Shown here one piece after another: positions 1 through 12,507 of a stretch of DNA of 64,000 nucleotides. Location of the stretch: NCBI GenBank assembly GCA_965208665.1, contig CBDBPH010000001.1, positions 16,408 through 80,407 of the forward strand. The letters are read 5' to 3'. Position 1 is the stretch's first letter. The number at the start of each line of letters is the position of its first letter. Under the pieces are notes generated by a model that was not told the DNA's origin, made no database searches, and was given only the letters and a program-made list of their open reading frames with translations. Source of the stretch: Dehalococcoidia bacterium (GTDB lineage Bacteria > Chloroflexota > Dehalococcoidia > Bin125). Position numbers and translations under genes: made by a program.

Positions 1-837
1 CATCGATTCGTCGACCGAGCTGCCGCCGCCTGCGACCACGCCGTCGACGGGAATCTGCTCGCCGGGCCGCACCCGCAGGCTGTCGCCGGAGCGGACATTC
101 GAGGCGGGAACGTCGCGCTCGACGCCGTTCTCCACGACGCGAGCCGTCTGCGGAACAAGCTCCAGCAGCCGTGTCAGAGCCGTCGCCGCCCGCAGCCGAA
201 CTCGGGCCTCCAGAGCCCGCCCGAGGCTGACAAAGCCAACGATGATCAGCGCGGTGTCGAAGAACACATCGCGTGAGGCGTCCGCACCTTCCAGAGCGCC
301 CGGGGCCAGTGCCGAAACGGTGCTGTAGCCCCATGCGGCGGCCACACCCAGGACGATCAAGGTGTCCATGTCCGTGGACCGGCGGGAAGCCGCGAGCGCC
401 GCCCGCCGAACCATCGGCCACACTCCCCAGGCCAATGCGGGCGTTGCGATGACGAAGAAGATTGGGAAGATGAGGTCTGGATTCCAACCGAACTCAGCCC
501 AGCGATTCGCCTGCATCGAGACGAAAATGCCCCAGCCGAGGACCAGGGCCGGCAGCGCTCGGCTGAGCTGCGGAGTGATGTCCACAGAGTCGGCGGTGGC
601 CCCCTCAGCCTGCTCGTCGACCAGCTCGTATCCCGCGCCGCTGATAGCGGCCGTCACGCCGGGCTCGTCCAACGCGCCCTCGACCTCGATGATTGCGCGT
701 CCGGAAATGAAGTCTGCGGATGCCTCCGAGACGCCGTCAACCTTGACCAGCGCGCGCTCCACACGGCGCACGCAGGCCGCGCAATGCATGCCTTCGATTC
801 GCAACGTCTGGGTCCGAGGCTCCGCCGCCGTGGTCAT
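1..837 (-). CDS. copA: Heavy-metal (Cu+-type) P1B ATPase, N-terminal part; runs off the window edge
   Basis: Manual translation from ATG 837: MTTAAEPRTQTLRIEGMHCAAC (HMA domain), MDTLIVLGV, FFDTALIIVGFVSLGRALE, LRVRPGEQIPVDGVV, VDESM (actuator domain). Absent from the ORF track because there is no stop in the window. Confidence 0.88.
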   Translation of the reverse strand, partial: MTTAAEPRTQTLRIEGMHCAACVRRVERALVKVDGVSEASADFISGRAIIEVEGALDEPGVTAAISGAGYELVDEQAEGATADSVDITPQLSRALPALVLGWGIFVSMQANRWAEFGWNPDLIFPIFFVIATPALAWGVWPMVRRAALAASRRSTDMDTLIVLGVAAAWGYSTVSALAPGALEGADASRDVFFDTALIIVGFVSLGRALEARVRLRAATALTRLLELVPQTARVVENGVERDVPASNVRSGDSLRVRPGEQIPVDGVVAGGGSSVDESM

Positions 838-880
838 GATCCTCAGCATATGTGTCGTGGGTTGGCGATAGTCTGGATCC

Positions 881-2104
881 ATGCCACGCGTCATGTTGCT
901 GATCCCGACCGCTTCATACCGTGCCCCGGACTTTATGTCGGCTGCCGACAAGCTGGGTCTTGATGTGGTGGTCGCTTCGGACATCGACCAGCCGTTGGCC
1001 GACATGTATCCGGGGCGCTGGCTGACGCTGCCGTATCACGACATCGAGCGAGGAGCGCAGGCTGTCGCGCGCTATGCGGACCGCTTCCCGCTCGATGCAG
1101 TGGTGGCTGTCGACGATCCCGGCACGATCCTGGCGGCCCATGCCAGCTCCGAGCTCCAGCTCTCCGGAAACAGTCCGGAATCGGTCCTTGGCACGCGGGA
1201 CAAGTCCGAGCTACGGCGAGCGCTGGATGCAAACGGCGTTCGATCGCCCAGATGGCAGGTCTGTCGATTTGCCGACGCGCCGCCTACTGATTCGCTGCAG
1301 TTCCCCGTCGTCGTCAAGCCGCTTGGTCTCAACGGCTCGCGGGGAGTGATGCGCGCAAATGACGAAGCTTCGTTCCGCAATGCGGTCGCCCGCTTGCAGC
1401 GCCTGCTTGGAACCAGGTCCGCGGCCGAGGAGTGTGGAGAACTCGCCGACCGCTACCTCGTCGAGGGATTCATCCCCGGAGTCGAGGTTGCAGTCGAAGG
1501 CCTATTGACGGATGGCGAGTTGCACACGCTGGCCGTGTTCGACAAACCAGACCCGCTCGATGGACCGTTCTTCGAAGAGACCATCTATGTCACGCCGTCC
1601 CGGTTACCGGACGAGCAGATTCAGGAGGTCGTCGAGACCGCGCGGCGTTCGGCAGAGGCGCTCGGACTGCACGATGGACCGTTACACGCAGAACTCCGGC
1701 TCAACGAGGATGGCGCCTGGCCAGTTGACGTAGCGGCCCGCACGATTGGCGGGCTATGCGCCCGGACCCTGCGCTTCGGGGCTGGGATGTCGCTCGAAGA
1801 AATCGTCCTGCGACACGCGATCAATGCGCCATTGGAGACGCTCAATCGCGAGGCGCGCGCCGCCGGCGTGATGATGATGCCCATCGTCGGTCGTGGCAGA
1901 ATCAAGGCGATTCTCGGCCTGGACGAGGCCGCCGCCGTGCCGCTGGTCGAAGAGATCGAGATGGAGGCGAGGGTCGGCAACATGCTGATCCCGCTGCCCG
2001 AGGGCGCAGACTATCCCGGCTTCATATTCGCCAGGGGCGAAGACCCAGCCGAAGTAGAGTCGGCGCTGCGGCAGGCCTGGTCGAAGATCGAGTTCGTCCT
2101 GTAG
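881..2104 (+). CDS. ATP-grasp domain protein (amino-acid-ligase-like)
   Basis: RDKSELRRAL, FPVVVKPLGLNGSRGV, LVEGFIPGVEVAVEG, HAELRL...DVAARTIGG ATP-grasp motifs. Confidence 0.85.
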   Translation: MPRVMLLIPTASYRAPDFMSAADKLGLDVVVASDIDQPLADMYPGRWLTLPYHDIERGAQAVARYADRFPLDAVVAVDDPGTILAAHASSELQLSGNSPESVLGTRDKSELRRALDANGVRSPRWQVCRFADAPPTDSLQFPVVVKPLGLNGSRGVMRANDEASFRNAVARLQRLLGTRSAAEECGELADRYLVEGFIPGVEVAVEGLLTDGELHTLAVFDKPDPLDGPFFEETIYVTPSRLPDEQIQEVVETARRSAEALGLHDGPLHAELRLNEDGAWPVDVAARTIGGLCARTLRFGAGMSLEEIVLRHAINAPLETLNREARAAGVMMMPIVGRGRIKAILGLDEAAAVPLVEEIEMEARVGNMLIPLPEGADYPGFIFARGEDPAEVESALRQAWSKIEFVL

Positions 2105-2109
2105 TCGAC

Positions 2110-3486
2110 TCAGGCCTCCTCCTGGCCCTCGCGCTGCGGCGCCGGTCGTGTGACCAGCGGGCTCACCGCCCGACCGAGGACCGCCTTCGGCGGCTTGGCA
2201 AAGTACACAGGGATGATCGCGGCGAAGGTGAGAATCGCGACGAGGGTCAGAGGAGCCTCATACGAGCCGGTCACATCTTCAAGTGCTCCAATCATCAATG
2301 GGCCGAAGCCGCTGGATATCTGCGTTGCCATCGCGATCAGGCCGTAGATCGCTCCAAAGCTGACGTAGCCGAACACATCTGACGTGAGTAGCGACTGCAG
2401 CATGTACACATTGCCGATGGTGAAACCAAAGATCAGGATGGCCACGTAGGTCACCGCGATGTGATCAACCTGGATGACGACCAGAGCTGCCGCGCCCTGA
2501 ACCAGGAACATGATCACCGTGAGGATGCGCAGGTCGACGCGATCGGCGAAGTAGCGCCCAACGACCAGCCGCGCCACGATGCTGCCGAACGCGATGATCG
2601 AGAGACTGGTTGTCGCCGCAGTGAGAGAGCCGACCCGCTCCTGCACGAACGCGGTCTGGTGCAAAATGAAGCCGGTCTGGGCCAGCAGCACGATCACGAA
2701 GCTGATCATGATCGACCAGAAAGACAGCGTCCGCGTCGCGCCGCGGATGCTCCAGCGCCGAGTCTGGTTGGCAACTGATCGAGCCACGCTCGCGCGTTGA
2801 GGAGTGACCGGCTCCAACCCATCCTGCGGCAGACCCATCTGACGAGGATCCCAGACCAGGACGAAAGCCACGATCGGAAGTCCCACCAGCAAGATCAGGC
2901 CGGCCATCGCAGGGGTAGCGACACCGAGTCCGAACTGTTCGATCAGCACGCCGTTGACCGGAGACAGGACCACCCCACCCAGCGACACACCGGTGGACGA
3001 AACAGCCATCGCCCAGGCCCGTCGATGAACAAACCAGCGCGCGAGGGTCGCATTGACTGCAACGCCGGCGCTCATGCCCGAGCCGAGGGCCATGACGATG
3101 TAGGCGAGATAGAGCTGCCACAGCTCCGTGACGTGCCCGATTGCCGCGGCCGCCGCGATCAGCAGAATCAGGCCGGGCGACATCCACTTGCGTGCGCCAT
3201 GCCGATCGATCAACGGACCGACCAGCGCGGAAGTGACCCCCGAGAACACGAAGTACATACCGGTCGCGAGCGACACATCGCTGTTCGACCAGTCGTGCAG
3301 CTCCCTCAGCGGCCCCAGGTAGACCGCAATGCCGTAGTAGCCCACGCCGACCGAGACGAACAACAGCCCGGCGCAAGCGAAGACGATCGCCCAGCCGTAG
3401 TAGACGTTGGCCGGCAACAGACGCGCGGCCAGCGGCCGGTGGGGCGGCAAGTCGAAGGAGTCACGGGAACTCGTCTGACCGGACAA
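2110..3486 (-). CDS. MFS transporter (OFA/MCT-like)
   Basis: About 12 hydrophobic segments, YYGW N-terminal motif, GPLIDRHGAR motif A, ARWFVHRR. Confidence 0.88.
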   Translation of the reverse strand: MSGQTSSRDSFDLPPHRPLAARLLPANVYYGWAIVFACAGLLFVSVGVGYYGIAVYLGPLRELHDWSNSDVSLATGMYFVFSGVTSALVGPLIDRHGARKWMSPGLILLIAAAAAIGHVTELWQLYLAYIVMALGSGMSAGVAVNATLARWFVHRRAWAMAVSSTGVSLGGVVLSPVNGVLIEQFGLGVATPAMAGLILLVGLPIVAFVLVWDPRQMGLPQDGLEPVTPQRASVARSVANQTRRWSIRGATRTLSFWSIMISFVIVLLAQTGFILHQTAFVQERVGSLTAATTSLSIIAFGSIVARLVVGRYFADRVDLRILTVIMFLVQGAAALVVIQVDHIAVTYVAILIFGFTIGNVYMLQSLLTSDVFGYVSFGAIYGLIAMATQISSGFGPLMIGALEDVTGSYEAPLTLVAILTFAAIIPVYFAKPPKAVLGRAVSPLVTRPAPQREGQEEA

Positions 3487-3588
3487 AGCCGATTCAGCAT
3501 ATGACCGATGCCGCGCCGTCCTGCATCGTGTAGCTGACTAGACTGCCAGCCAGTCAGGGTTCCAGCACATGATTTGAGGGAGTTGGAC

Positions 3589-4716
3589 ATGGCCGAACGA
3601 CGCACGGGATGGGTCTACCACGAGTCCTACATGTGGCACGACACGGGTCGGACGCGGGCCTTCGATCCCGAACTGAGACGTTGGATGCAGGCCTGGGAAC
3701 ACTGGGAGAATCCCGACACGAAGCGCCGATTCAACAACCTGCTGGAGGTCTCCGAATTCTCCGAGGAGTTGGTGCCGCTTAAGCCGCGCCCAGCGAATCT
3801 CGAGCAGGTGCTCCGCTTTCACACGCCCGAGTACGTCGATCGAGTCCGCGATTTATCCGCAGGCGATGGCGGCGACGCGGGAGAGGGCGCGCCATTCTCC
3901 CACGGCGGCTACGAGATCGCATTGCTCGCCGCGGGCGGCACGATCACAGCCGTAGACGCCGTGCTCGACGGTGATGTCGACAACGCCTACGCGCTCGTGC
4001 GTCCGCCCGGACACCACGCCGAGCGCGATCGCGGCCGAGGCTTCTGCGTCTTCGGCAACGTCGCGATCGCGGGAATGCACGCCCTGGCGGAGCGCGGGAT
4101 CGACCGGGTGGCGACGCTCGACTGGGATGTCCACCACGGCAACGGCACGCAACAGGCCTTCTACGACCGCAACGACGTGCTGACCATGTCGATCCACCAG
4201 GACCAGTGGTATCCCCGAAACAGCGGCGCCATGGACGAACAAGGCGACGGTGACGGAGACGGCTACAACATCAACATCCCGTTGCCGCCGGGCAGCGGTC
4301 ATGGAGCCTATGTCGAGACGATCCAACAGGTCGTCGTGCCGGCGCTGCAGGCCTTCCAGCCTGACCTGATCCTTGTTCCGTCTGGATTCGACGGCGGTAT
4401 GTACGATCCGCTGGGTCGGATGATGGCGTACTCGGAAACCTTCCGCGAGATGACGCGATTGCTGCTGGAAGCGGCGGACGATCTCTGCGGCGGTCGACTC
4501 GTACTGAGTCACGAAGGCGGCTACAGCCCGACCTACGTCCCCTTCTGCGGCCTCGCCGTCATGGAGGAACTCAGCGGCAAGCGGTCGATCGCGGGAGACC
4601 CGTTCGAGGACAACTCGGCTACCGCCGGAGGTCAGGATCTACAGCCACACCAACAGTTGGTGCTAAACGACGCAACGTTGCTGGTCGATCGGTTGAAGCA
4701 GCTCGAGGGCGTTTAG
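3589..4716 (+). CDS. Class II histone-deacetylase-family Zn amidohydrolase
   Basis: RPPGHHA, GFC, DWDVHHGNGTQ, NIPLPPG, SGFD and EGGY motifs; ATG 3589 follows GAGGGAG. Confidence 0.92.
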   Translation: MAERRTGWVYHESYMWHDTGRTRAFDPELRRWMQAWEHWENPDTKRRFNNLLEVSEFSEELVPLKPRPANLEQVLRFHTPEYVDRVRDLSAGDGGDAGEGAPFSHGGYEIALLAAGGTITAVDAVLDGDVDNAYALVRPPGHHAERDRGRGFCVFGNVAIAGMHALAERGIDRVATLDWDVHHGNGTQQAFYDRNDVLTMSIHQDQWYPRNSGAMDEQGDGDGDGYNINIPLPPGSGHGAYVETIQQVVVPALQAFQPDLILVPSGFDGGMYDPLGRMMAYSETFREMTRLLLEAADDLCGGRLVLSHEGGYSPTYVPFCGLAVMEELSGKRSIAGDPFEDNSATAGGQDLQPHQQLVLNDATLLVDRLKQLEGV

Positions 4717-4779
4717 CCAGAACGTTCCGCCACTTCGCGTCCTCCTCTTCTCCGAGCAGGTGGGAGCGATGGAGGGTCG

Positions 4780-6159
4780 CTAGAGCTCGGTCACACCGAT
4801 TGAACTGACCGATTGATCGGTGCCGAAGGGAGCCAACTGGTCCCCTGTCGGCTCCGCTCAACAGAACCAGTCTTCGGTCAGGCCCGGCCGATGGACATGC
4901 GGCGCCGCCACATCAGGCCAGGGTTCCGCTTCGAGCCATCGGCAAGCTGCAGCCTTGATCTGCGAGAGCGATGCCTGGCGCTCCGCCAGGCCCGCGATCT
5001 CGGCCTGCAGATCGTCCATCCGAGCGTCTTCGTGCTGCCAGTTCCAGGTGAGGCCGTCGCTGTCGTACGCCACCAGCGAACCCAGCTCGCGCATCGGATG
5101 GACCAACGGAGAGTCAGAAGGAACGAGCAGACGCAGCCCCAGTTGCACCGGCGGCGTCACGTCCACAAGCTTCCGAGTCTCTACGAACCGAACGAGATCA
5201 AGGAAGTGTGCCGGCGAGGTCCAGGGAGTGAACGGGAGCCACGTGGGCCTGAGGGCGACTCCTGACCGTTCGGTGAGTTGCAGCACGAGATCGAGGTCGT
5301 CGGCGGTATGGCCCTTGTCCAGAATCTCGAGCAGGCGGTCATCCACCGACTCAAACGCCGAGGTGATGAACGTGACCCCGAGTTCGGCCATCTCGGGCAA
5401 CAGTTCCTGATGCTCGATTAGGTGCTCAACCTTGATTGTGGCGTCAAAGGTGATTCCCGGATGCTGACCCGACGTCTCGCGCAGCAGATGCATCGCCAGA
5501 TCAGGGGCATTGAGGAAGTCGGGGTCACCAAAGGTGACGTGTTCCGCTCCGGCCGCGACTTGCTGATCGATGTCGGCAAGCACGGTCTCTGCCCCGTTGA
5601 GCCGCAGTCGTCCCGCGTAGATCGGCGTTAGCGGGCAATGCGTACACCGATGCGCACAGCCGCGCGTCGCCTCGACATAGCCGGCGAGGTGAGAGTTGCC
5701 ATCAGCATCCCGATAGCGCGCGTACTGTTGGAGTGGCGGCAACACCGAACGAATAGGGACAGGACGCGATTCACGGTCGAACAACGGCACGTTTGATATG
5801 TCGTCACCGCCAGCAAGCTTGACGAGCTGCAGATCGGTGTCGCCGCTGATCGCTCGGCCCAAACCGAGATCGTGGAGTGAGTTGGCCGCGAGACCGTAGA
5901 AGACGATCTTGTCGGACATCTCCCGTAGCTGCCCGGCAATGCGAATGCCAAGTCGGGCGGCCGTGTGCATCGGCGTCGAGATGCCGATCAGGTCCGCTTC
6001 AGCAGCAGCGGCAAGCAGTCGATCAGAACTCACCGATTCCACGGCAAGGTCGAACGCGGAAACCTCGTGTCCCGCTGCGATCAACGCCGCGGCCGGCGCG
6101 GCAATGCCGAGCGGCTGGTGGCCTTGCTCGTACGTGGAGATCAGGAGGACGCGCGCCAT
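4780..6159 (-). CDS. CUAEP/CCAEP-tail B12-binding radical SAM selenoprotein; in-frame TGA at 4858-4860 read as Sec
   Basis: N-terminal cobalamin-binding-like domain (LLISTYEQGHQPLG), radical SAM motif RGCAHRCTHC, and a tail TEDWFC-TGA-AEPTGDQLAPFGTDQSVSSIGVTEL-TAG followed by a hairpin after the UGA. Confidence 0.88.
4829..4855 (-). promoter_or_regulatory. Putative bacterial SECIS hairpin
   Basis: mRNA UGA-GC-GGAGCCGAC-AGGGGACCA-GUUGGCUCC: a 9-bp stem (one G-U pair) with a G-rich apex, starting 3 nt after the UGA. Confidence 0.7.
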
Positions 6160-6187
6160 CGGACGCCTGTCCGGCTAATGATCAGGG

Positions 6188-6796
6188 TTACTTCTTCGAC
6201 GGCTGGTAGTACGGATTCTCCCCGGACTGATGATCGGTGATGTCGATCAATTCGTCGATCTCCGGGAGCTGTTCCTTGACCGCAACCTCAATGCCCTGCT
6301 TGAGCGTCACGTTGGCCATGCCACAGCCCTGGCAGCCGCCGCCCATCTCGATGTAGGCCTTACTGCCCTGGACATCGAGGAGCTGGACAAACCCGCCGTG
6401 TGCGGCAATCTGCGGATTGACCTGTTCGTCGAAGATCTTCTGGATCGCGAAGGCCAACGGATCCCGCCACACCGGATTGGGATTGTTGAACTCAAGCCCC
6501 GAGACATTCGGTCCCTTGAACTCGTAGTGGACGGACGTGCCGCGCAAGTCCTCGAGCCGCTCGCCTTCGACGTAGAGGACGAAATCCGGGTACTCGGCAG
6601 TGGCATCTCCATCCGGTTCGTATCCCTTTTCGACGATCGTCAGCACGTGCTCGAAACCGTCGGACGTGCGTCCGGTGATCTTGAGCCGCAGTCCGGCCAC
6701 TTCCTCCGGATAACCGGTCAAGACCTCAACCAGTTTCGACCGGGCAATCTCGGAAAAGGTGATCCCCAAATCGCCCGTCGGTGCGTCGGTCGTCAT
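6188..6796 (-). CDS. nfuA: Fe-S biogenesis protein NfuA (degenerate A-type domain plus Nfu domain)
   Basis: Cys-less HesB-like N-terminus ending in FNNPN; VNPQIAAHGG...MGGGCQGCGMANVTLKQGIE...DITDHQSGENPYY. Start taken at ATG 6796 (the track start is 6829). Confidence 0.88.
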   Translation of the reverse strand: MTTDAPTGDLGITFSEIARSKLVEVLTGYPEEVAGLRLKITGRTSDGFEHVLTIVEKGYEPDGDATAEYPDFVLYVEGERLEDLRGTSVHYEFKGPNVSGLEFNNPNPVWRDPLAFAIQKIFDEQVNPQIAAHGGFVQLLDVQGSKAYIEMGGGCQGCGMANVTLKQGIEVAVKEQLPEIDELIDITDHQSGENPYYQPSKK

Positions 6797-6855
6797 CGGA
6801 TTCCCCCGTCCGGTTTCGTTTCCTAGCATAGCGTTCGGCCAACGTTGGATCGTGA

Positions 6856-8601
6856 ATGGAGCACGACATGACAGTCGAACGAGTAGTCGTCGAGAAGAAC
6901 ATCGAGATCCCGATGCGGGACGGCGTCATCCTGCGCGCCGACCTGTACCGACCGGAGGATGCCGACCAGCCCGGCAATGCCGTGCCGGGCATCGTGACCC
7001 GAACGCCGTACGACAAGGAGCAATCCGGCGCCGGACTGGTTGCCGTGATGCCCAGCGCGCTCAAGCTGGCAGAGCGCGGCTATGCGGTCGTGGTCTGCGA
7101 CTGCCGCGGTCGATACGCCTCCGAAGGCGACTTCAAGCCTTTCCACCAGGAAGGCGCGGACGGCTATGACACGATCGAATGGATCGCTGCACAGCCCTGG
7201 TGCGATGGCAACACCGCGATCTACGGCCCCTCCTACGTCGGGGCGACGACCATGCTGGCCGCCCGCGAGCAGCCGCCCTCACTTCGCTGCGCCATCCCGA
7301 TTATCACCGCCGACGACTACTACGACGGCTGGACCTATCAGGGCGGCGCCTTCCAGCTTGGCTTCATCGGCCTCTGGGGCAGCGGTGTGGCCGCGACGGG
7401 ATATCTCCAACAGAATCACACGCGGCCGATGGACGCGGCCGATGAGATGACCGAGGCCGTAATGGGCAACGCGTTCCGCCTCTTGGGCAACCGACCACTG
7501 AGCACGATGCCCGGCATCTCGCAGGAGGGAGTGGCCAACTACTGGCACGAGTGGATCGAGCATGAGACGCGGGATGACTACTGGGAATCCGTCAGGCACT
7601 CAGCCGACTATTCGCGCTTCCAGGTGCCCATGCTGCATATCGGCGGTTGGTTCGACATATTCGGGATCGGCACGGTGCGCAACTTCCGCGGCATCCGCGA
7701 CGAGGGCAATCCCGATCAGAACCTGATCATGGGGCCCTGGGCGCACACCAACTATGACCGCTGGTTGGGCGAAATGGAGTTCGGCCCGACCGGCGCTGCG
7801 GCCGCAGCCAACGTAATCGCCGACATCAACGCCTTCCTCGATCGGCACCTCAAAGGCGGCGACCAGGAACTCCCTGACGTCCGCTGGTTCCTGATGGGCG
7901 CGAACGAGTGGCGCACGGATGAGTCGTGGCCTCCGACCAGCGCCGAGGAGCGATCGCTCTACCTGGCCTCCGACGGCGGCGCGACCATGCACTACGGCGA
8001 CGGCCGCCTGGTCGACGATCGCCCCGAGGACGACCACCGCTGGGACGAGTTCATGTACACCGGATACAAGCCGGTGATCACCGAAGGCGGCTCGACGTTG
8101 CAACAGGGAGTCGGTCTGCCCGGCCCGCGTGATCAGTCGCGGACCGAGAGCCGAGACGATGTGCTCTGCTACACCACCGAACCACTAACCGAAGCCCGAG
8201 ACGTCGCCGGGCCGGTCGAAGTTGACATCTGGTTCGCCAGCAGCCAGCCAGACACCGACATCACGGCCAAGCTCGTCGATGTGCATCCCGATGGCAAGCC
8301 GGTGTCGCTGGTCGACGGGATCATGCGAGCGCGATTCCGCGAGGGATTCGATCAAGAGGTCCTCATGACGCCCGGCGAGGTGGTCAAAGTGACCGTCGAC
8401 CTCGCTTCACTGGGTCACCGATTCGAGGTCGGCCACCGAATCCGGCTGGAAGTGTCGAGCAGCAACTACCCTCGATTCATGACCAACTCCAACGACGGCG
8501 GCTCGGTCAACTCGTCAACCGAGATGCAGCCGGCGATCAACTCCATTCGGCGCGGCGGAGAGTATCCGTCGGCCGTGCGTTTCTACCAACTGAAGGACTG
8601 A
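6856..8601 (+). CDS. CocE/NonD family serine hydrolase
   Basis: IPMRDGVILRADLYRP, RTPYDK, DCRGRYASEG, GPSYVG nucleophile elbow, GWFD, GPWAH. Confidence 0.92.
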   Translation: MEHDMTVERVVVEKNIEIPMRDGVILRADLYRPEDADQPGNAVPGIVTRTPYDKEQSGAGLVAVMPSALKLAERGYAVVVCDCRGRYASEGDFKPFHQEGADGYDTIEWIAAQPWCDGNTAIYGPSYVGATTMLAAREQPPSLRCAIPIITADDYYDGWTYQGGAFQLGFIGLWGSGVAATGYLQQNHTRPMDAADEMTEAVMGNAFRLLGNRPLSTMPGISQEGVANYWHEWIEHETRDDYWESVRHSADYSRFQVPMLHIGGWFDIFGIGTVRNFRGIRDEGNPDQNLIMGPWAHTNYDRWLGEMEFGPTGAAAAANVIADINAFLDRHLKGGDQELPDVRWFLMGANEWRTDESWPPTSAEERSLYLASDGGATMHYGDGRLVDDRPEDDHRWDEFMYTGYKPVITEGGSTLQQGVGLPGPRDQSRTESRDDVLCYTTEPLTEARDVAGPVEVDIWFASSQPDTDITAKLVDVHPDGKPVSLVDGIMRARFREGFDQEVLMTPGEVVKVTVDLASLGHRFEVGHRIRLEVSSSNYPRFMTNSNDGGSVNSSTEMQPAINSIRRGGEYPSAVRFYQLKD

Positions 8602-8613
8602 GAGGAACGACCG

Positions 8614-8940
8614 ATGATCTACGAACTTCGCATCTACACGGCGCATCCGGGCAAGATGGGCCACTTGATGAAGCGCTTCCGTGACCACACGATGGAGCTG
8701 TTCGAGCGCCACGGTATCCACAACGTGGGCTACTGGACCAACTCGGTCGGCGGCCGATCCGACGAGCTCTGGTACATCGTTAGCTTCGAGAGCGCCGGCC
8801 AGAGGGACGAAGCGTGGAAGAACTTCGGCGCCGACCCAGAATGGCAAGCCGCGCGAGCCGCCTCAGAGGAGAACGGCCCCCTGGTCCACCACATCGAGAA
8901 CCGGATCCTCCAGCCAACCGAGTGGTCGCCGATGCCCTAG
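8614..8940 (+). CDS. NIPSNAP family protein
   Basis: IYELRIYTAHPGK...HGIHNVGYW...W..F.ADPEW...ILQPTEWSP. Confidence 0.9.
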   Translation: MIYELRIYTAHPGKMGHLMKRFRDHTMELFERHGIHNVGYWTNSVGGRSDELWYIVSFESAGQRDEAWKNFGADPEWQAARAASEENGPLVHHIENRILQPTEWSPMP

Positions 8941-8984
8941 CCGCCGTACAGTAACCGCCCTTCAACCAAGGAGAGCACCTAGCA

Positions 8985-10565
8985 ATGAGGACTGTAGCAG
9001 CTTGGTCACTAACGAAGAAACTTGAAGATAGAGAGGAAGCACAACGGGCTTTTGCTCGACATCAGCAAGCGACGACCGATTGGCTGTTGAACAAAGGCAT
9101 TCAGGATGTAGAACTTGCAGAGCAACAGATTGCACTCACGAACGGGAAGCAGGCATCATTCTCACACAGCCGCTTGCGGGCGGAGGAAGGCCATATCTAC
9201 GCTTTCTCGTTGTTGGAACCTCACGACGACACCAACGAGTGGGAGACGCGATTTTCTCTCGCCGTAGGGGACTCAGAGTTGGCCTTGTTCTGCCAAATGC
9301 GGATTGGAAATCGACAAGCTGCCGTCGGCAACTTGCGCTATGACCCTAGATGCCCACACTTTCTGCGCGAGATCATTACCGATGGCCAATGGTACGCAGG
9401 ACCAACTGCAGTTTCATCCTCTGCCGCCAGTTATCTAGGAGGCCCCCAAGCCAATGAACTTGTCAAGTTGATCTGGAATCCCAATCGCAAGCTTCCAGTC
9501 GTCATCGTCTCAGAGTCAGACGGTTTCACATTGCATCCTGACATACTGGACCGTCTCGCCTATGACCTAAGCGGCATTGCCCATGTGGGACTCATTGATA
9601 CCGATGCTGCCTGGCGGATTACACAGCTAAGAGGTAAGGAGTGGTCCTGCTTCTGGGGGGCAGTTCGCCTCTATTGGCCGATGTCAGGTCAGGATGCCAA
9701 TCCAAGACATCATCCATTCTGGGCTCCGAGCCATGTCCTCAAGGACGGAGTAGATACCAAGCTGGCGGCTCTGCGCATCCGCAATAGCATACGAAGGAGA
9801 ATCCTGACGCAATCGACCGCCCTAACCCAACCCGGTCTGATATCTGTACTCCGTGCAGCACACTGGGGAGAGATAGCAAAGCAGGCGGAAGAAAGCCAGG
9901 AGAATCAGGCTCTCTTTGAGCTGGCGGCGTCTGCGGAAGCACAGCTGAGAGAGGAAGTCATTCAGTTGAAGGAGGATCTTGAGGCTGCGACCACAGAAAA
10001 TCTCCATTTGGAGAGGAAGAATGACGAACTAACAGCGCAGCTCGAGCAGATGAATGTAGCGATGGCTCATGCAGGTCGTCAGAGCGACGCGTCCGATACC
10101 TCCGACGCCCTTCAACCCAATGACATTCCTCAGCCCACGACAGTTGCCGAAGTGGTTGTACAGGCGCGCAGGAGTTGCGCCAATCTAGAGTTTGGTGGAG
10201 ACGTTGACGAGGGCGTGAGCGGACTGGCTCCTTCCGCTGGGCCTCCAGACGAAGTGTTGCGATATCTCCAAGAGTTGAACAACATGGCAGCGTTGATAGT
10301 CGACGATGGAGAAATCGGCGAGCATCCTCATACGTGGCTCGAGAAGCGGAATGTTGTCTCTTCAGGAGAGACAAAACGCACCATGAGCAGCCGATCGGAA
10401 CAACAGAGGAGAACTTGGGACACAGGATTCGGTGATTCGGATATCTACGAGTTCCACTTGAAGGTCAACGAAAGTACAAATCCGGCGAACTGTGTGCGCA
10501 TTTACTACAGACTAGGCGAACCTGGCCAGCGTACTAGTGTCGGGTGGGTAGGACGCCATCCCTAA
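8985..10565 (+). CDS. Hypothetical protein, low GC, with a central coiled coil and a C-terminal HLK..RIYY..GWVGRH domain
   Basis: 526-aa ORF with AAGGAG upstream; many A/T-ending codons, unlike its neighbours. Confidence 0.75.
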   Translation: MRTVAAWSLTKKLEDREEAQRAFARHQQATTDWLLNKGIQDVELAEQQIALTNGKQASFSHSRLRAEEGHIYAFSLLEPHDDTNEWETRFSLAVGDSELALFCQMRIGNRQAAVGNLRYDPRCPHFLREIITDGQWYAGPTAVSSSAASYLGGPQANELVKLIWNPNRKLPVVIVSESDGFTLHPDILDRLAYDLSGIAHVGLIDTDAAWRITQLRGKEWSCFWGAVRLYWPMSGQDANPRHHPFWAPSHVLKDGVDTKLAALRIRNSIRRRILTQSTALTQPGLISVLRAAHWGEIAKQAEESQENQALFELAASAEAQLREEVIQLKEDLEAATTENLHLERKNDELTAQLEQMNVAMAHAGRQSDASDTSDALQPNDIPQPTTVAEVVVQARRSCANLEFGGDVDEGVSGLAPSAGPPDEVLRYLQELNNMAALIVDDGEIGEHPHTWLEKRNVVSSGETKRTMSSRSEQQRRTWDTGFGDSDIYEFHLKVNESTNPANCVRIYYRLGEPGQRTSVGWVGRHP

Positions 10566-10596
10566 CTCTAGATTACGTTCTCGACAAACCAGTAAA

Positions 10597-11415
10597 TCAG
10601 TGCGTTCGGTGCCGCAGCCTGGCCACCATCACCGGTGGGATGTTCGGCATGTGATCCCAACTCAACCGACCTTCAGCGTCTCCGTCTCCTCCGTCGGTGA
10701 TCGATGGTTCCCGGATACCATCGAGGGCCCAGCCCCGCTCGAAGGCCGTGCTGAACAGCTCCGTCAACGTTCGGTCGAAGTACGGCTGAATTGACGGCTG
10801 GCCTTTGACTGCGATTCCATAGTTCACCCGCGTGTCGAGGTAGTTGGTGATCTTCACGCCTGCTTCTTCGATGAACTGCCCGTCCTCTGTCTCGATGCGT
10901 TCGCGAAACAGGCGGACCTGCGGTCCGGGCCGAAAGACCGGATGGAGCACGGAAAACACAAACGGCGCGTCCTCGGCCAGGGCGAGTGGGAGCATGTCGA
11001 AGAGTGGCGTGATCTCGGCGATGTCCATCAGCGCCATATTGCACACGGCTGCCCCGAACGGCGCTCCTGCAGCCCCGGATAGTGCCGCCAGCGCGGATCG
11101 GTCCGTGACATCGACACGAATCCACTGGATCTTGTCGCCGCCGGATCGTTGTCGTGCGCCTCTGAGTTGCCCTTCAGATGCGTCGGTGGCCGTGACAGCG
11201 ACGCCAAGCCCCGCCAACTGCCGCGCAAAGTTGCCGTTGCCGCAAGCCAGTTCGAGCACCGTGGTCGGTAGCGGCTGGAGCAGCTCGAGCGTGCTGGGAA
11301 ACACCAGCGTCCGCTGCCAGTGATTGCCCTCGTCGCCCTGGGCCTCGTCCCAGAACTCGGCGTTCGCTTCCCACGCCTCAACCGATTCGGCGTTGTAGTC
11401 CGGGTAGTCGACCAT
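10597..11415 (-). CDS. Class I SAM-dependent methyltransferase
   Basis: VLELACGNG motif I, TDASEGQL, CNMALMDI, FVFSVLHP; start taken at ATG 11415 (MVDYPDY). Confidence 0.88.
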   Translation of the reverse strand: MVDYPDYNAESVEAWEANAEFWDEAQGDEGNHWQRTLVFPSTLELLQPLPTTVLELACGNGNFARQLAGLGVAVTATDASEGQLRGARQRSGGDKIQWIRVDVTDRSALAALSGAAGAPFGAAVCNMALMDIAEITPLFDMLPLALAEDAPFVFSVLHPVFRPGPQVRLFRERIETEDGQFIEEAGVKITNYLDTRVNYGIAVKGQPSIQPYFDRTLTELFSTAFERGWALDGIREPSITDGGDGDAEGRLSWDHMPNIPPVMVARLRHRTH

Positions 11416-11497
11416 GTCGGGCTCGGTTTCGTTGGTACCGTAGGCGCAGACTGTCGAGATTATCACCGTATCTCGATTGCGTGCAGGGGGGATCACC

Positions 11498-12457
11498 ATG
11501 AGCGCACCACTTCCGGTCATCATCCAGGGTCTCGGCCCGATTGGCCTGCGAATCGCCGAGGCGGCTCAAAACGACTCCTTCCTCGAAGTCGTCGGAGCAG
11601 TTGAGATTAATCCCGAGATGGTTGGTCGACCGCTAGCGGACTTCGTTGACGGCGCCCCTGAAATCACCATCCGGCAGTCGATCGCCGCGGCGCGGGTCGA
11701 CTCCCGCTCGGACGGCGGAATCCTGATCCACTGCACCGGGTCCTACCTCGAACAGGTGTCGCCGCAGATCGAAGAGGCGTTGCGGCAGGACCTACATGTG
11801 GTCTCGACCTGTGAGGAACTCGCATTCGCCCAGGCGCGCCACCCCGAGATCGCGGCCGGCATCGATGTGCTGGCCCGGCGGGCCGAGCGAACCGTGGTCG
11901 GAACCGGCGTCAATCCCGGATTCCTGATGGATGCGTTGCCCGCGTCGCTCTCGTCGATTTCGCACAGCATCAAATCGGTCTCGGTCAAGCGAGTCCAGAA
12001 TCCCTCGCGGCGTCGGGTCCCGTTCCAGCAGAAGGTGGGGATGGGCATCTCAAAGGCACAATGGCAAGCGAAAAGCGACGCTGGCGGATTTGGTCACGTG
12101 GGACTGGTCGAATCGGCGAGATTGCTGGCCTACCCGCTTGGCTGGAAGTTGGTCGACTGGCAGCACGACATGGTTCCCTGCGAGGTGCCCGGGCAGGAGC
12201 TGGTCGCAGGAACGCTGGAGACGCTGCAAGGATCGACCTACGACGGCCACACCGTCCGCCTCCACTTCGAGGCCAACGCCTCGGTCGAAGAGGAGTATGA
12301 CGAGATCGTCGTTGAGGGCACGCCACCGCTCAAGCTGCGATTCGAGGGCGGCGTCTTTGGCGACGACGCCACCGCAGCGTCGGTGTTGCGCGCTGCCAGA
12401 GTGATCCCGCACACGCGGCGCGGATTGATGACCGTGCTGGACCTTCCCCTGCGTTAA
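11498..12457 (+). CDS. NAD(P)-dependent amine dehydrogenase of the DapB-like/Ord (2,4-diaminopentanoate dehydrogenase) family
   Basis: GLGPIG Rossmann motif, HCTGS, VVSTCEEL, GTGVNPGFLMD, GDDATA. Confidence 0.8.
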   Translation: MSAPLPVIIQGLGPIGLRIAEAAQNDSFLEVVGAVEINPEMVGRPLADFVDGAPEITIRQSIAAARVDSRSDGGILIHCTGSYLEQVSPQIEEALRQDLHVVSTCEELAFAQARHPEIAAGIDVLARRAERTVVGTGVNPGFLMDALPASLSSISHSIKSVSVKRVQNPSRRRVPFQQKVGMGISKAQWQAKSDAGGFGHVGLVESARLLAYPLGWKLVDWQHDMVPCEVPGQELVAGTLETLQGSTYDGHTVRLHFEANASVEEEYDEIVVEGTPPLKLRFEGGVFGDDATAASVLRAARVIPHTRRGLMTVLDLPLR

Positions 12458-12507
12458 ACTGGGCATCCGCCCGATACACGCCGGGCGAATGCCGAGAGGG
12501 GATCGAA

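Follow-up and report, generated by a model that had tools for sequence, protein, structure and literature searches.

Do the closely packed genes for an ATP-grasp ligase, a major facilitator superfamily (MFS) transporter, a zinc-dependent deacylase of the histone deacetylase (HDAC) fold, a radical S-adenosylmethionine (SAM) protein and an NfuA-like iron-sulfur (Fe-S) carrier make up one pathway, and if so, which of them belong to it? The question is raised by a locus near the beginning of a 64,000-nucleotide stretch of contig CBDBPH010000001.1 (assembly GCA_965208665.1) from a Dehalococcoidia bacterium of the phylum Chloroflexota; the whole of this stretch is called the window below. A preliminary description of the DNA took these genes, together with a neighboring copper-type ATPase (CopA), for either a route that ligates, modifies, deprotects and exports a small molecule or a selenium-dependent metal(loid) transformation system, with the ligase and the radical SAM protein at its core. 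Comparison with other genomes points to a smaller unit: not five genes, but a conserved module of a radical SAM selenoprotein with a C-terminal CUAEP tail, an ATP-grasp protein of the L-amino-acid-ligase (LAL) type and an Fe-S or iron helper. These three very probably form one functional module.

Conservation of the radical SAM neighborhood

We compared regions of about 19.5 kb that contain the radical SAM gene, from 20 genomes of the window's genus and from 40 Chloroflexota genomes of other genera, and added 80 further loci from species-representative genomes, 76 of them outside the genus and drawn from many phyla. Neighbors were sought by tblastn with the window proteins. For a strict count, only loci with 3 kb or more of sequence on either side were retained (34 from other Chloroflexota genera and 45 from other lineages), and genes within 5 kb were scored. 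The radical SAM gene has an orthologue of the ATP-grasp ligase, 39–57% identical, as a neighbor in 21 of the 40 other-genus Chloroflexota loci and in 35 of the 76 loci from other lineages, and under the strict count in 16/34 and 23/45 loci, respectively. The lineages with this linkage include Actinomycetota, Acidobacteriota, Planctomycetota, Nitrospirota, Dormibacterota, Gemmatimonadota, Myxococcota, and Beta- and Gammaproteobacteria. Relative to the radical SAM gene, the ligase gene may lie upstream or downstream, convergent or divergent; because orientation and order differ between lineages, the proximity has been kept through rearrangement. In the nearest lineages outside the genus (loci L083, L127 and L130), the genes for NfuA, the radical SAM protein and the ligase are contiguous.

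An iron or Fe-S helper gene is the other frequent neighbor. With good flanks and within 5 kb, nfuA adjoins the radical SAM gene in 20/20 loci of the genus, 8/34 loci of other Chloroflexota genera and 8/45 loci of other lineages, and tblastn over the complete sets found NfuA in 10/40 and 13/76 loci outside the genus. YggX, an Fe(II)-trafficking protein (PF04362), was found in 24/40 and 14/76 loci, and a second type of Nfu (Nfu_N plus NifU) adjoins the radical SAM gene in further loci. Counted together, NfuA, Nfu or YggX is encoded within 5 kb of the radical SAM gene in 20/20, 28/34 and 22/45 loci, and the earlier proposal that nfuA serves the radical SAM enzyme as a helper is borne out to the extent that an iron or Fe-S helper is its frequent neighbor. 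At least one of the ligase, a helper or a DUF169 protein (see below) is encoded within 5 kb in 29 of the 34 Chloroflexota loci and 35 of the 45 others. The linkage of the radical SAM, ATP-grasp and NfuA genes exceeds chance.

NfuA is a protein that re-loads the sacrificial clusters of the radical SAM enzymes LipA and MiaB. Judged by its domains, the window protein is an NfuA-like Nfu carrier: its NifU domain (PF01106, 72.4 bits) is above the cut-off, and its alignment to TIGR03341 (residues 23–208 against model positions 1–190) spans two domains, although the scores against TIGR03341 (100.6 bits, cut-off 269) and NF008392 (76.7 bits, cut-off 268) stay below the equivalog cut-offs. It shares with the NfuA of LipA and MiaB the two-domain arrangement and a CxxC motif, and its gene immediately precedes, in the same direction, a radical SAM gene with which it is probably co-transcribed. 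It differs in falling below the NfuA cut-offs and in being substituted by YggX or the Nfu_N-type Nfu in other lineages.

The pairing of ligase and radical SAM protein was also apparent at the level of whole genomes. We searched the same genomes with NF040546, the NCBIfam model of the radical SAM family (E ≤ 1e-80), and with the window ligase (E ≤ 1e-40). Among 401 Chloroflexota genomes, both proteins were found in 102, the radical SAM protein only in 3, the ligase only in 29 and neither in 267; among 251 genomes of Acidobacteriota, the phylum to which the Bryobacteraceae genome of locus L149 belongs, the corresponding numbers were 41, 1, 7 and 202, and as related genomes are not independent, Fisher p-values for these tallies overstate the co-distribution. 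The tallies include four genomes flagged as unpublished (G077, with both proteins, and G210, G380 and G464, with the ligase only), and the conclusions are the same without them. In 22 of the 41 Acidobacteriota genomes that have both, the two genes lie within 5 kb of each other. The pair is present though unlinked in a Poribacteria genome (G440) and in two genomes of the window's genus, G011 and G021, in which 23 kb and 220 kb, respectively, separate the displaced ligase gene from the radical SAM gene. In ligase-only genomes, the ligase gene still tends to adjoin a gene for NfuA or for a formyltransferase-like protein. Adjacent in many phyla and co-distributed in both Chloroflexota and Acidobacteriota, the ligase and the radical SAM protein thus keep the central place that the preliminary description had given them; the finding that it had named as its refutation, ATP-grasp and CUAEP genes unlinked and not co-distributed elsewhere, is clearly not what these genomes hold.

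Several observations, in addition to the relatedness of the genomes, weigh against a strict partnership. Where the flanks are good, roughly one locus in two has no adjacent ligase gene, and the 29 Chloroflexota and 7 Acidobacteriota genomes with a ligase and no radical SAM protein mean that the module is not obligate; in all five ligase-only genomes that were checked, NF040546 gave no match even at E ≤ 1e-10. Conversely, genome G175, which is 97% complete and assembled in one contig, encodes the radical SAM protein and no ligase, and in a Nonomuraea genome with the radical SAM protein the best ATP-grasp protein is only 30% identical to the window ligase. The window's nfuA-like gene is, by tblastn, the only copy in its genome, and its product is for this reason probably a general rather than a dedicated carrier.

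Two further genes recur in these neighborhoods. A DUF169 protein is encoded near the radical SAM gene in 8/40 loci of other Chloroflexota genera and 18/76 loci of other lineages. In these 18 its gene is the immediate neighbor (e.g., L130:6444-7148 on the minus strand, and in L150, L166, L168 and L178); several Poribacteria and Nitrospirota are among them. The gene sometimes stands beside the radical SAM gene with no ligase gene nearby. A PDB sequence search with DUF169 gave chance-level matches only. The figure legend of one preprint has DUF169 drawn beside Nitrospina hgcA and merR, which we take only as a hint of metal contexts. The second gene, present in 21/40 and 2/76 loci, encodes a formyltransferase-like protein (PF00551) that scores 110 bits against TIGR00460, whose cut-off is 201, and is not Fmt itself. 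In 20-odd Chloroflexota loci (e.g., L056:6451-7413 and L081:9369-9701, both minus strand), a co-directional yggX precedes the radical SAM gene and a divergent Fmt-like gene stands beside it; the Fmt-like gene also occurs by the ligase gene where the radical SAM gene lies elsewhere or was not found. By tblastn, the window's own genome contains no orthologue of yggX or of the Fmt-like gene.

Other recurrent neighbors were set aside. An ABC ATPase gene near the radical SAM gene (7/34 and 10/45 loci) was discarded, the query being a generic ABC ATPase; in some Acidimicrobiia loci an ABC-2 permease accompanies it. A cluster of 136-aa open reading frames (ORFs) between the ligase and formyltransferase-like genes has no Pfam family and may not represent a gene. 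Genes for SDR, UxuA, epimerase, flavin reductase and HIT proteins recur within single lineages only.

The radical SAM protein and its tail

Translation of the radical SAM gene stops early at an in-frame TGA. When this codon is read as selenocysteine (Sec), 25 further codons follow, up to a TAG stop at 4780-4782 on the minus strand, and the protein acquires the C-terminal tail ...HRPGLTEDWFCUAEPTGDQLAP.... One internal TGA is likewise present in the radical SAM gene of 24/24 other genomes of the genus, and of 40 loci from other genera, 27 have Sec at the corresponding position and 13 have Cys. A hairpin extending from the UGA has a predicted energy of -29 kcal/mol (z = -3.55), and 1 of 200 shuffled sequences folds equally well. 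Within 60 homologous loci, a 6-bp stem located 16–32 nt from the UGA has 4.98 of its 6 positions paired in 47 Sec forms; the value falls to 3.08 in 13 Cys forms and is 1.5–3.9 in controls with the stem slid along the sequence. One stem position carries compensatory CG, GC and UA pairs across the homologues, and an AGUUN loop was found in 43/47 Sec forms vs 4/13 Cys forms. Plain minimum free energies, computed for the 48 nt that follow the codon for Sec or Cys, did not separate the two groups (-14.8 for Sec vs -15.3 kcal/mol for Cys). An Rfam scan of window positions 1-12500 at E ≤ 1 returned no match, and thus no catalogued selenocysteine insertion sequence (SECIS) or riboswitch.

The genome encodes the machinery for Sec: selB (328 bits), selA (524 bits), selD (348.5 bits) and a tRNA-Sec with anticodon tca. 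Its selD gene (G000:C1:264281-265222) itself has one in-frame TGA, so that selenophosphate synthetase is also a predicted selenoprotein. With a UGA at the Cys position of homologues, a hairpin next to it and the machinery in the same genome, the radical SAM protein is identified from sequence as a selenoprotein. This has a consequence for annotation: for most homologues the databases give a length of 433 aa, which means that the protein was ended at the Sec codon, and these entries miss the conserved tail, the segment that probably holds the substrate.

The best NCBIfam match of the protein is NF040546, the CUAEP/CCAEP-tail radical SAM (seleno)protein family, at 468.4 bits over model positions 1–467 of 468 when Cys stands in for Sec, and a search of the genome itself gave 461.4 bits. 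The 26 members from the window's genus (G000, G001-G024 and G384) score 451–482 bits against this model, vs 545–778 bits for full-length matches in other Chloroflexota, and in the alignment the genus proteins lack residues in the linker between the domains and ahead of the tail. The full-length best match, the name-giving tail and the alternation of Sec and Cys are those of the family; by score and alignment, the genus appears as a divergent, somewhat shortened branch of NF040546 and not as an equivalog. In Haft's 2022 preprint, the family is counted among the few selenoproteins with a CU motif, with structure and function "not well known", and among the relevant papers returned by our literature search this preprint was the only one to name CUAEP, CCAEP or NF040546.

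When 14 diverse members are aligned, no Cys is invariant except C168, C172 and C175, which form a CxxxCxxC motif, and those of the C433-U434 dyad. The dyad sits in the motif P.L[TS]E.W[FY]C[UC]AEP, and C-(U/C)-A-E-P was present in 60/60 loci examined. This pattern predicts a protein with one cluster site and a two-ligand tail.

The second-best NCBIfam match is ArsL (NF040542), at 245.3 bits, with residues 4–387 aligned to model positions 1–406 of 423, which covers the entire core and excludes the tail; families of B12/radical SAM proteins such as HpnR and PhpK reach at most 50 bits. The ArsL papers report that ArsL cleaves SAM to give a 3-amino-3-carboxypropyl (ACP) radical, that the cysteines of its C-terminal RCCLKC sequence bind As(III) and are needed for formation of the C-As bond, and that ArsL is the only radical SAM enzyme of canonical fold so far reported to make this radical. 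The window protein and ArsL are built alike: a Rossmann-like domain at the N-terminus, then the barrel with the CxxxCxxC motif, and at the C-terminus a short tail that carries vicinal Cys. In contrast to the three Cys of RCCLKC, however, the tail here is FC(U/C)AEP with two ligands, one of them usually Sec, and the gene has no arsM or arsQ neighbors, its partner being an L-amino acid ligase and not a methyltransferase. With a score below the ArsL cut-off of 450 bits and the tail FCUAEP instead of RCCLKC, the protein is not classed as an ArsL, but its core suggests that it may work like one.

A "B12 radical SAM" label had been attached to the protein in the preliminary description. AprD4, which ranks first among the solved folds compared below, is not known to bind cobalamin. 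Pfam detects the Radical_SAM domain (PF04055, 46.6 bits) and a B12-binding domain (PF02310) at 32.0 bits, 0.1 under the cut-off of 32.1. The solved folds nearest to the AlphaFold model (pLDDT 89.8, about 70–83 in the tail) are AprD4 (TM 0.68), OxsB, MgmA, TsrM and MiaB, with the cobalamin enzymes TokK and CysS as further structural neighbors, and a PDB sequence search with the protein gave weak matches to MiaB, RimO and Elp3 only. A B12-binding-like Rossmann domain is present, but the label is a weak one with a borderline hit and does not imply the use of cobalamin. The accompanying analogy to B12 radical SAM enzymes that methylate their substrates is not the best one, given that the nearest characterized relative, ArsL, makes an ACP radical and that AprD4 is the best structural match.

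The ligase partner and a candidate reaction

The ATP-grasp protein is assigned by homology to the LAL type. Its best solved relative is the L-amino acid ligase BL00235 (PDB 3VOT; E 2.3e-44, residues 15–398), and BacD is matched at E ~1e-17. All three Pfam domains score over their cut-offs (ATP-grasp_4, 109 bits; LAL_C2, 57.1; ATPgrasp_N, 33.1), and the three-domain LAL architecture of BL00235 and BacD, LAL_C2 included, is kept together with the ATP-grasp residues. Invariant in 63 ligase orthologues are K108, K146, E195, E202, D221, K222, H269, E271, R273, R287, G290 and G291, all typical ATP-grasp positions, which would be expected from the fold to bind ATP or Mg. What sets the window ligase apart from BL00235 and BacD is that it lies under every NCBIfam equivalog cut-off and belongs to an orthologous group of its own, which travels with the radical SAM protein.

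LALs make dipeptide antimetabolites, among them bacilysin (BacD), rhizocticin (RizA) and tabtoxin (TabS), and phosphinothricin and arsinothricin are 4-substituted 2-aminobutanoates. The pathways to the dipeptides follow the same logic as the one proposed here, with an unusual amino acid made first and LAL coupling second. Their clusters are rare and strain-specific, whereas the radical SAM family of the present module, usually a selenoprotein, occurs in 105/401 Chloroflexota and 42/251 Acidobacteriota genomes sampled and in many other phyla. For BL00235, a review (PMC6920838, Table 2) gives Met-Gly and Met-Met as products.

From these likenesses we propose the following reaction sequence. NfuA, or Nfu or YggX in other lineages, would keep the [4Fe-4S] cluster of the radical SAM protein loaded. 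The radical SAM protein, acting like ArsL, would cleave SAM into methylthioadenosine and an ACP radical, which would be captured by a soft atom chelated on the Cys433-Sec434 tail, either a metalloid (As or Sb) or a chalcogen (Se or S); the hold of As(III) by the RCCLKC tail of ArsL serves as the model for this chelation. The product would be a methionine-like 4-substituted 2-aminobutanoate, and the ligase would condense it with a second amino acid to a dipeptide. A methionine-like substrate is proposed because the closest solved relative of the ligase makes Met-Gly and Met-Met. We regard ACP transfer of the ArsL kind followed by dipeptide formation as possible, though doubtful. Module and mechanism together provide the best overall explanation that we can offer, and it is a tentative one. 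For the radical SAM protein itself, selenium-dependent metal(loid) transformation, the second of the two original suggestions, is the reading that we would favor. That there exists a widespread, as yet unrecognized route to carbon-heteroatom bonds, in which the Cys-Sec tail presents Se, S, As or Sb and the ligase makes an organo-selenium or organo-metalloid dipeptide, is a further step that we consider somewhat unlikely. If it were true, the dipeptide would be no rare antibiotic but a physiological metabolite of many bacteria from soil, sponges and groundwater, spread over at least 8 phyla; a physiological role fits better than an antibiotic because the module is common.

This mechanism has its own difficulties. 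The case for an ACP radical is drawn entirely from the 245-bit similarity to ArsL, and we know of no established sequence determinants of ArsL-type SAM cleavage. The tail of ArsL offers three cysteines where a dyad is found here, and the window protein does not reach the NF040546 equivalog cut-off of 500 bits. De novo clustering of the neighbors revealed no recurrent ArsM, ArsR or ArsC, and a recurrent arsenic-gene context is absent: an ArsB-like permease of the family of arsenite/antimonite pumps (PF02040; 265 bits against NF011980, under its cut-off) is encoded 3.5–4.4 kb from the radical SAM gene in only 3/40 Chloroflexota loci (L045:4714-6027 on the plus strand, L048 and L081).

The C-terminus of thioredoxin reductase is also a Cys-Sec pair. 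The radical SAM protein could instead be a canonical 5'-deoxyadenosyl-radical enzyme, possibly cobalamin-dependent (class B), that methylates or rearranges a substrate such as the dipeptide of the ligase and uses its tail, like that of thioredoxin reductase, as a redox or H-atom-donor arm and not to hold the substrate. Two thiol/selenol ligands and no more would fit a selenenylsulfide couple, and the N-terminal B12-binding-like domain (PF02310, 32.0 bits), the weak NCBIfam matches to HpnR and PhpK and the structural neighbors OxsB, MgmA, TsrM, TokK and CysS all lean in this direction. However, ArsL is by far the strongest characterized relative (245 vs at most 50 bits), the PF02310 hit is under its cut-off and the best structural match is AprD4. 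Cobalamin has no mention in the ArsL preprint that we consulted. We consider such an enzyme unlikely.

Insertion of sulfur or selenium is less probable again. Here a persulfide or selenosulfide would sit on the tail, or the enzyme would consume a cluster supplied by Nfu, and the radical would capture S or Se to give products of the homocysteine or selenohomocysteine type. Such chemistry would explain the persistence of the Nfu and YggX neighbors (20/20, 28/34 and 22/45 loci), and the methylthiotransferases MiaB and RimO are among the sequence and fold neighbors of the protein. Yet the helpers may merely protect an oxygen-sensitive cluster, and there is no conserved Cys for an auxiliary cluster, only C168, C172, C175, C433 and U434 being invariant. 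Nor did a cysteine desulfurase or selenophosphate gene recur in the radical SAM neighborhoods.

The proposed ACP transfer and ligation would bear on more than this locus. A sister family of ArsL would show whether ACP-radical chemistry is general and to what other uses it is put, and the conserved ligase partner offers a two-enzyme assay for a family that NCBIfam lists as uncharacterized, with naturally occurring Cys variants that lend themselves to expression. NF040546 is already catalogued as a family; for the partnership of the radical SAM protein with a LAL-type ligase and iron or Fe-S helpers, our literature searches, which had the ArsL-paper supplements outside their range, found no description.

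Genus-restricted neighbors and layout of the locus

The remaining genes of the locus behave differently from the module. Near the radical SAM gene, loci of the window's genus encode the MFS transporter in 18/20 cases, the HDAC-fold protein in 19/20, CopA in 15/20 and a CocE-type hydrolase in 20/20. By tblastn, HDAC, MFS and CocE were found in 0/40 loci of other Chloroflexota genera and 0/76 loci of other lineages, and CopA, queried in the 76-locus set only, in 0/76. A block of about 17 kb from CopA to an Ord-like gene is syntenic in 18/20 loci of the genus, and as the entire block is conserved, HDAC and MFS are linked to the radical SAM gene no better than the CocE hydrolase or a methyltransferase. 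The HDAC-fold protein matches bacterial HDAH, dimethoate hydrolase and propanil hydrolase at E ~1e-108 and is, by this similarity, an HDAH-type amidohydrolase closest to broad-specificity bacterial enzymes. In the window's genus, the HDAH and MFS pair is interposed between the radical SAM and ligase genes. We conclude that HDAH, MFS, CocE and CopA are lineage-specific neighbors, at most recruited within the genus. Linkage to the CUAEP protein accordingly holds for ATP-grasp and NfuA, and for HDAC, MFS and CopA it does not stand out from ordinary synteny within the genus.

The full route of five or six genes, in which the ligase and the radical SAM protein build a molecule, the HDAC-fold enzyme deprotects it, the MFS protein exports it and CopA provides a link to metals, is decidedly improbable in this light. 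Its genes are tightly packed and occur together in 18/20 loci of the genus, and the insertion of HDAC and MFS exactly between the two conserved partners could mean recruitment. Against this, none of the three proteins assigned to deprotection, export and metals was found by tblastn beside the radical SAM gene in the loci outside the genus, and the unrelated methyltransferase and Ord-like genes of the syntenic block are equally "linked". Even within the genus, further insertions split the ATP-grasp and MFS genes and the HDAC and radical SAM genes (L024, L038 and L041), and the ligase gene lies far off in G011 and G021. De novo clustering found no recurrent MFS gene, though tblastn could miss a distant MFS protein. 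That the radical SAM, ligase and nfuA genes share no function and are neighbors through inherited gene order alone is the least credible reading: they lie on different strands and mostly in no single operon, about half of the good-flank loci lack the ligase and the radical SAM and ligase genes can each occur without the other, but they recur as neighbors, in several orientations, in no fewer than 8 phyla, co-occurrence persists in genomes where the genes are unlinked, and for single-copy genes in genomes of 3–6 Mb we estimate chance proximity within 5 kb at a fraction of a percent.

In the window, the five genes lie within 6 kb, with short spacers, where the preliminary description had placed them (Table 1), and its statement that they are not a single operon agrees with the alternation of strands (+ - + - -). 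The ATP-grasp and MFS genes converge over 5 bp, the MFS and HDAC genes diverge over 87 bp, and 63 bp separate the HDAC stop from the true stop of the radical SAM gene. As described before, nfuA shares the strand of the radical SAM gene and ends 28 bp ahead of its start, and the ATP-grasp and ATPase starts are 43 bp apart and divergent, given an ATPase start at 837; the ATPase ORF is open as far as 1005, and every match in the genus starts at the position corresponding to 837. Pfam and NCBIfam upheld the family labels of all genes, with scores of 118 bits for MFS_1 in the MFS protein and 289 bits for Hist_deacetyl in the HDAC-fold protein.

Table 1 Features of the locus, in window coordinates
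Feature	Positions	Strand	Remarks
Copper-type P1B ATPase (CopA), N-terminal part	1..837	-	HMA domain and E1-E2 start; runs off the window start
L-amino-acid-ligase-type ATP-grasp protein (by homology)	881-2104	+	407 aa; PF13535, PF18603 (LAL_C2), PF18130
MFS transporter, oxalate/formate- or lactate-transporter-like	2110-3486	-	458 aa; MFS_1
HDAH-type (HDAC-fold) zinc amidohydrolase (by homology)	3574-4716	+	380 aa; PF00850
Radical SAM protein, predicted selenoprotein	4780-6159	-	459 aa with Sec434; 433-aa ORF (4858-6159) up to the TGA
In-frame TGA, predicted Sec, codon 434	4858-4860	-	
SECIS-like hairpin	4822-4862	-	Begins at the UGA; family-conserved 6-bp stem with AGUUN loop at about 4828-4844
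NfuA-like Fe-S carrier (by homology)	6188-6829	-	213 aa; degenerate A-type N-domain and NifU domain, CQGC motif
CocE/NonD family (S15) hydrolase	6856-8601	+	Divergent from nfuA; TIGR00976, 442.7 bits

The G+C content is even across positions 1-8500 (0.61–0.67). Scans of positions 600-7200 returned 0 promoter-like sites and 5 terminator-like sites, vs 3.1 expected. For positions 800-6900, more than half of the sampled sequence words were found in sequencing runs of three studies, two of which are labelled sponge metagenome; we use this as a habitat pointer only.

Beyond the CocE gene, a 526-aa ORF at 8985-10565 on the plus strand lies in a stretch of lower G+C content (0.54–0.57, vs about 0.64 around it). 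It has no Pfam family, matches the candidate defense family HEC-07 of PADLOC (E 5.9e-37) and resembles NsnC in its C-terminal part. Among the loci of the genus, it has a counterpart of 70% identity in L028 and of about 25% identity in L024, L030 and L033, with no match in the other 16. The region of this ORF is probably a small defense island.

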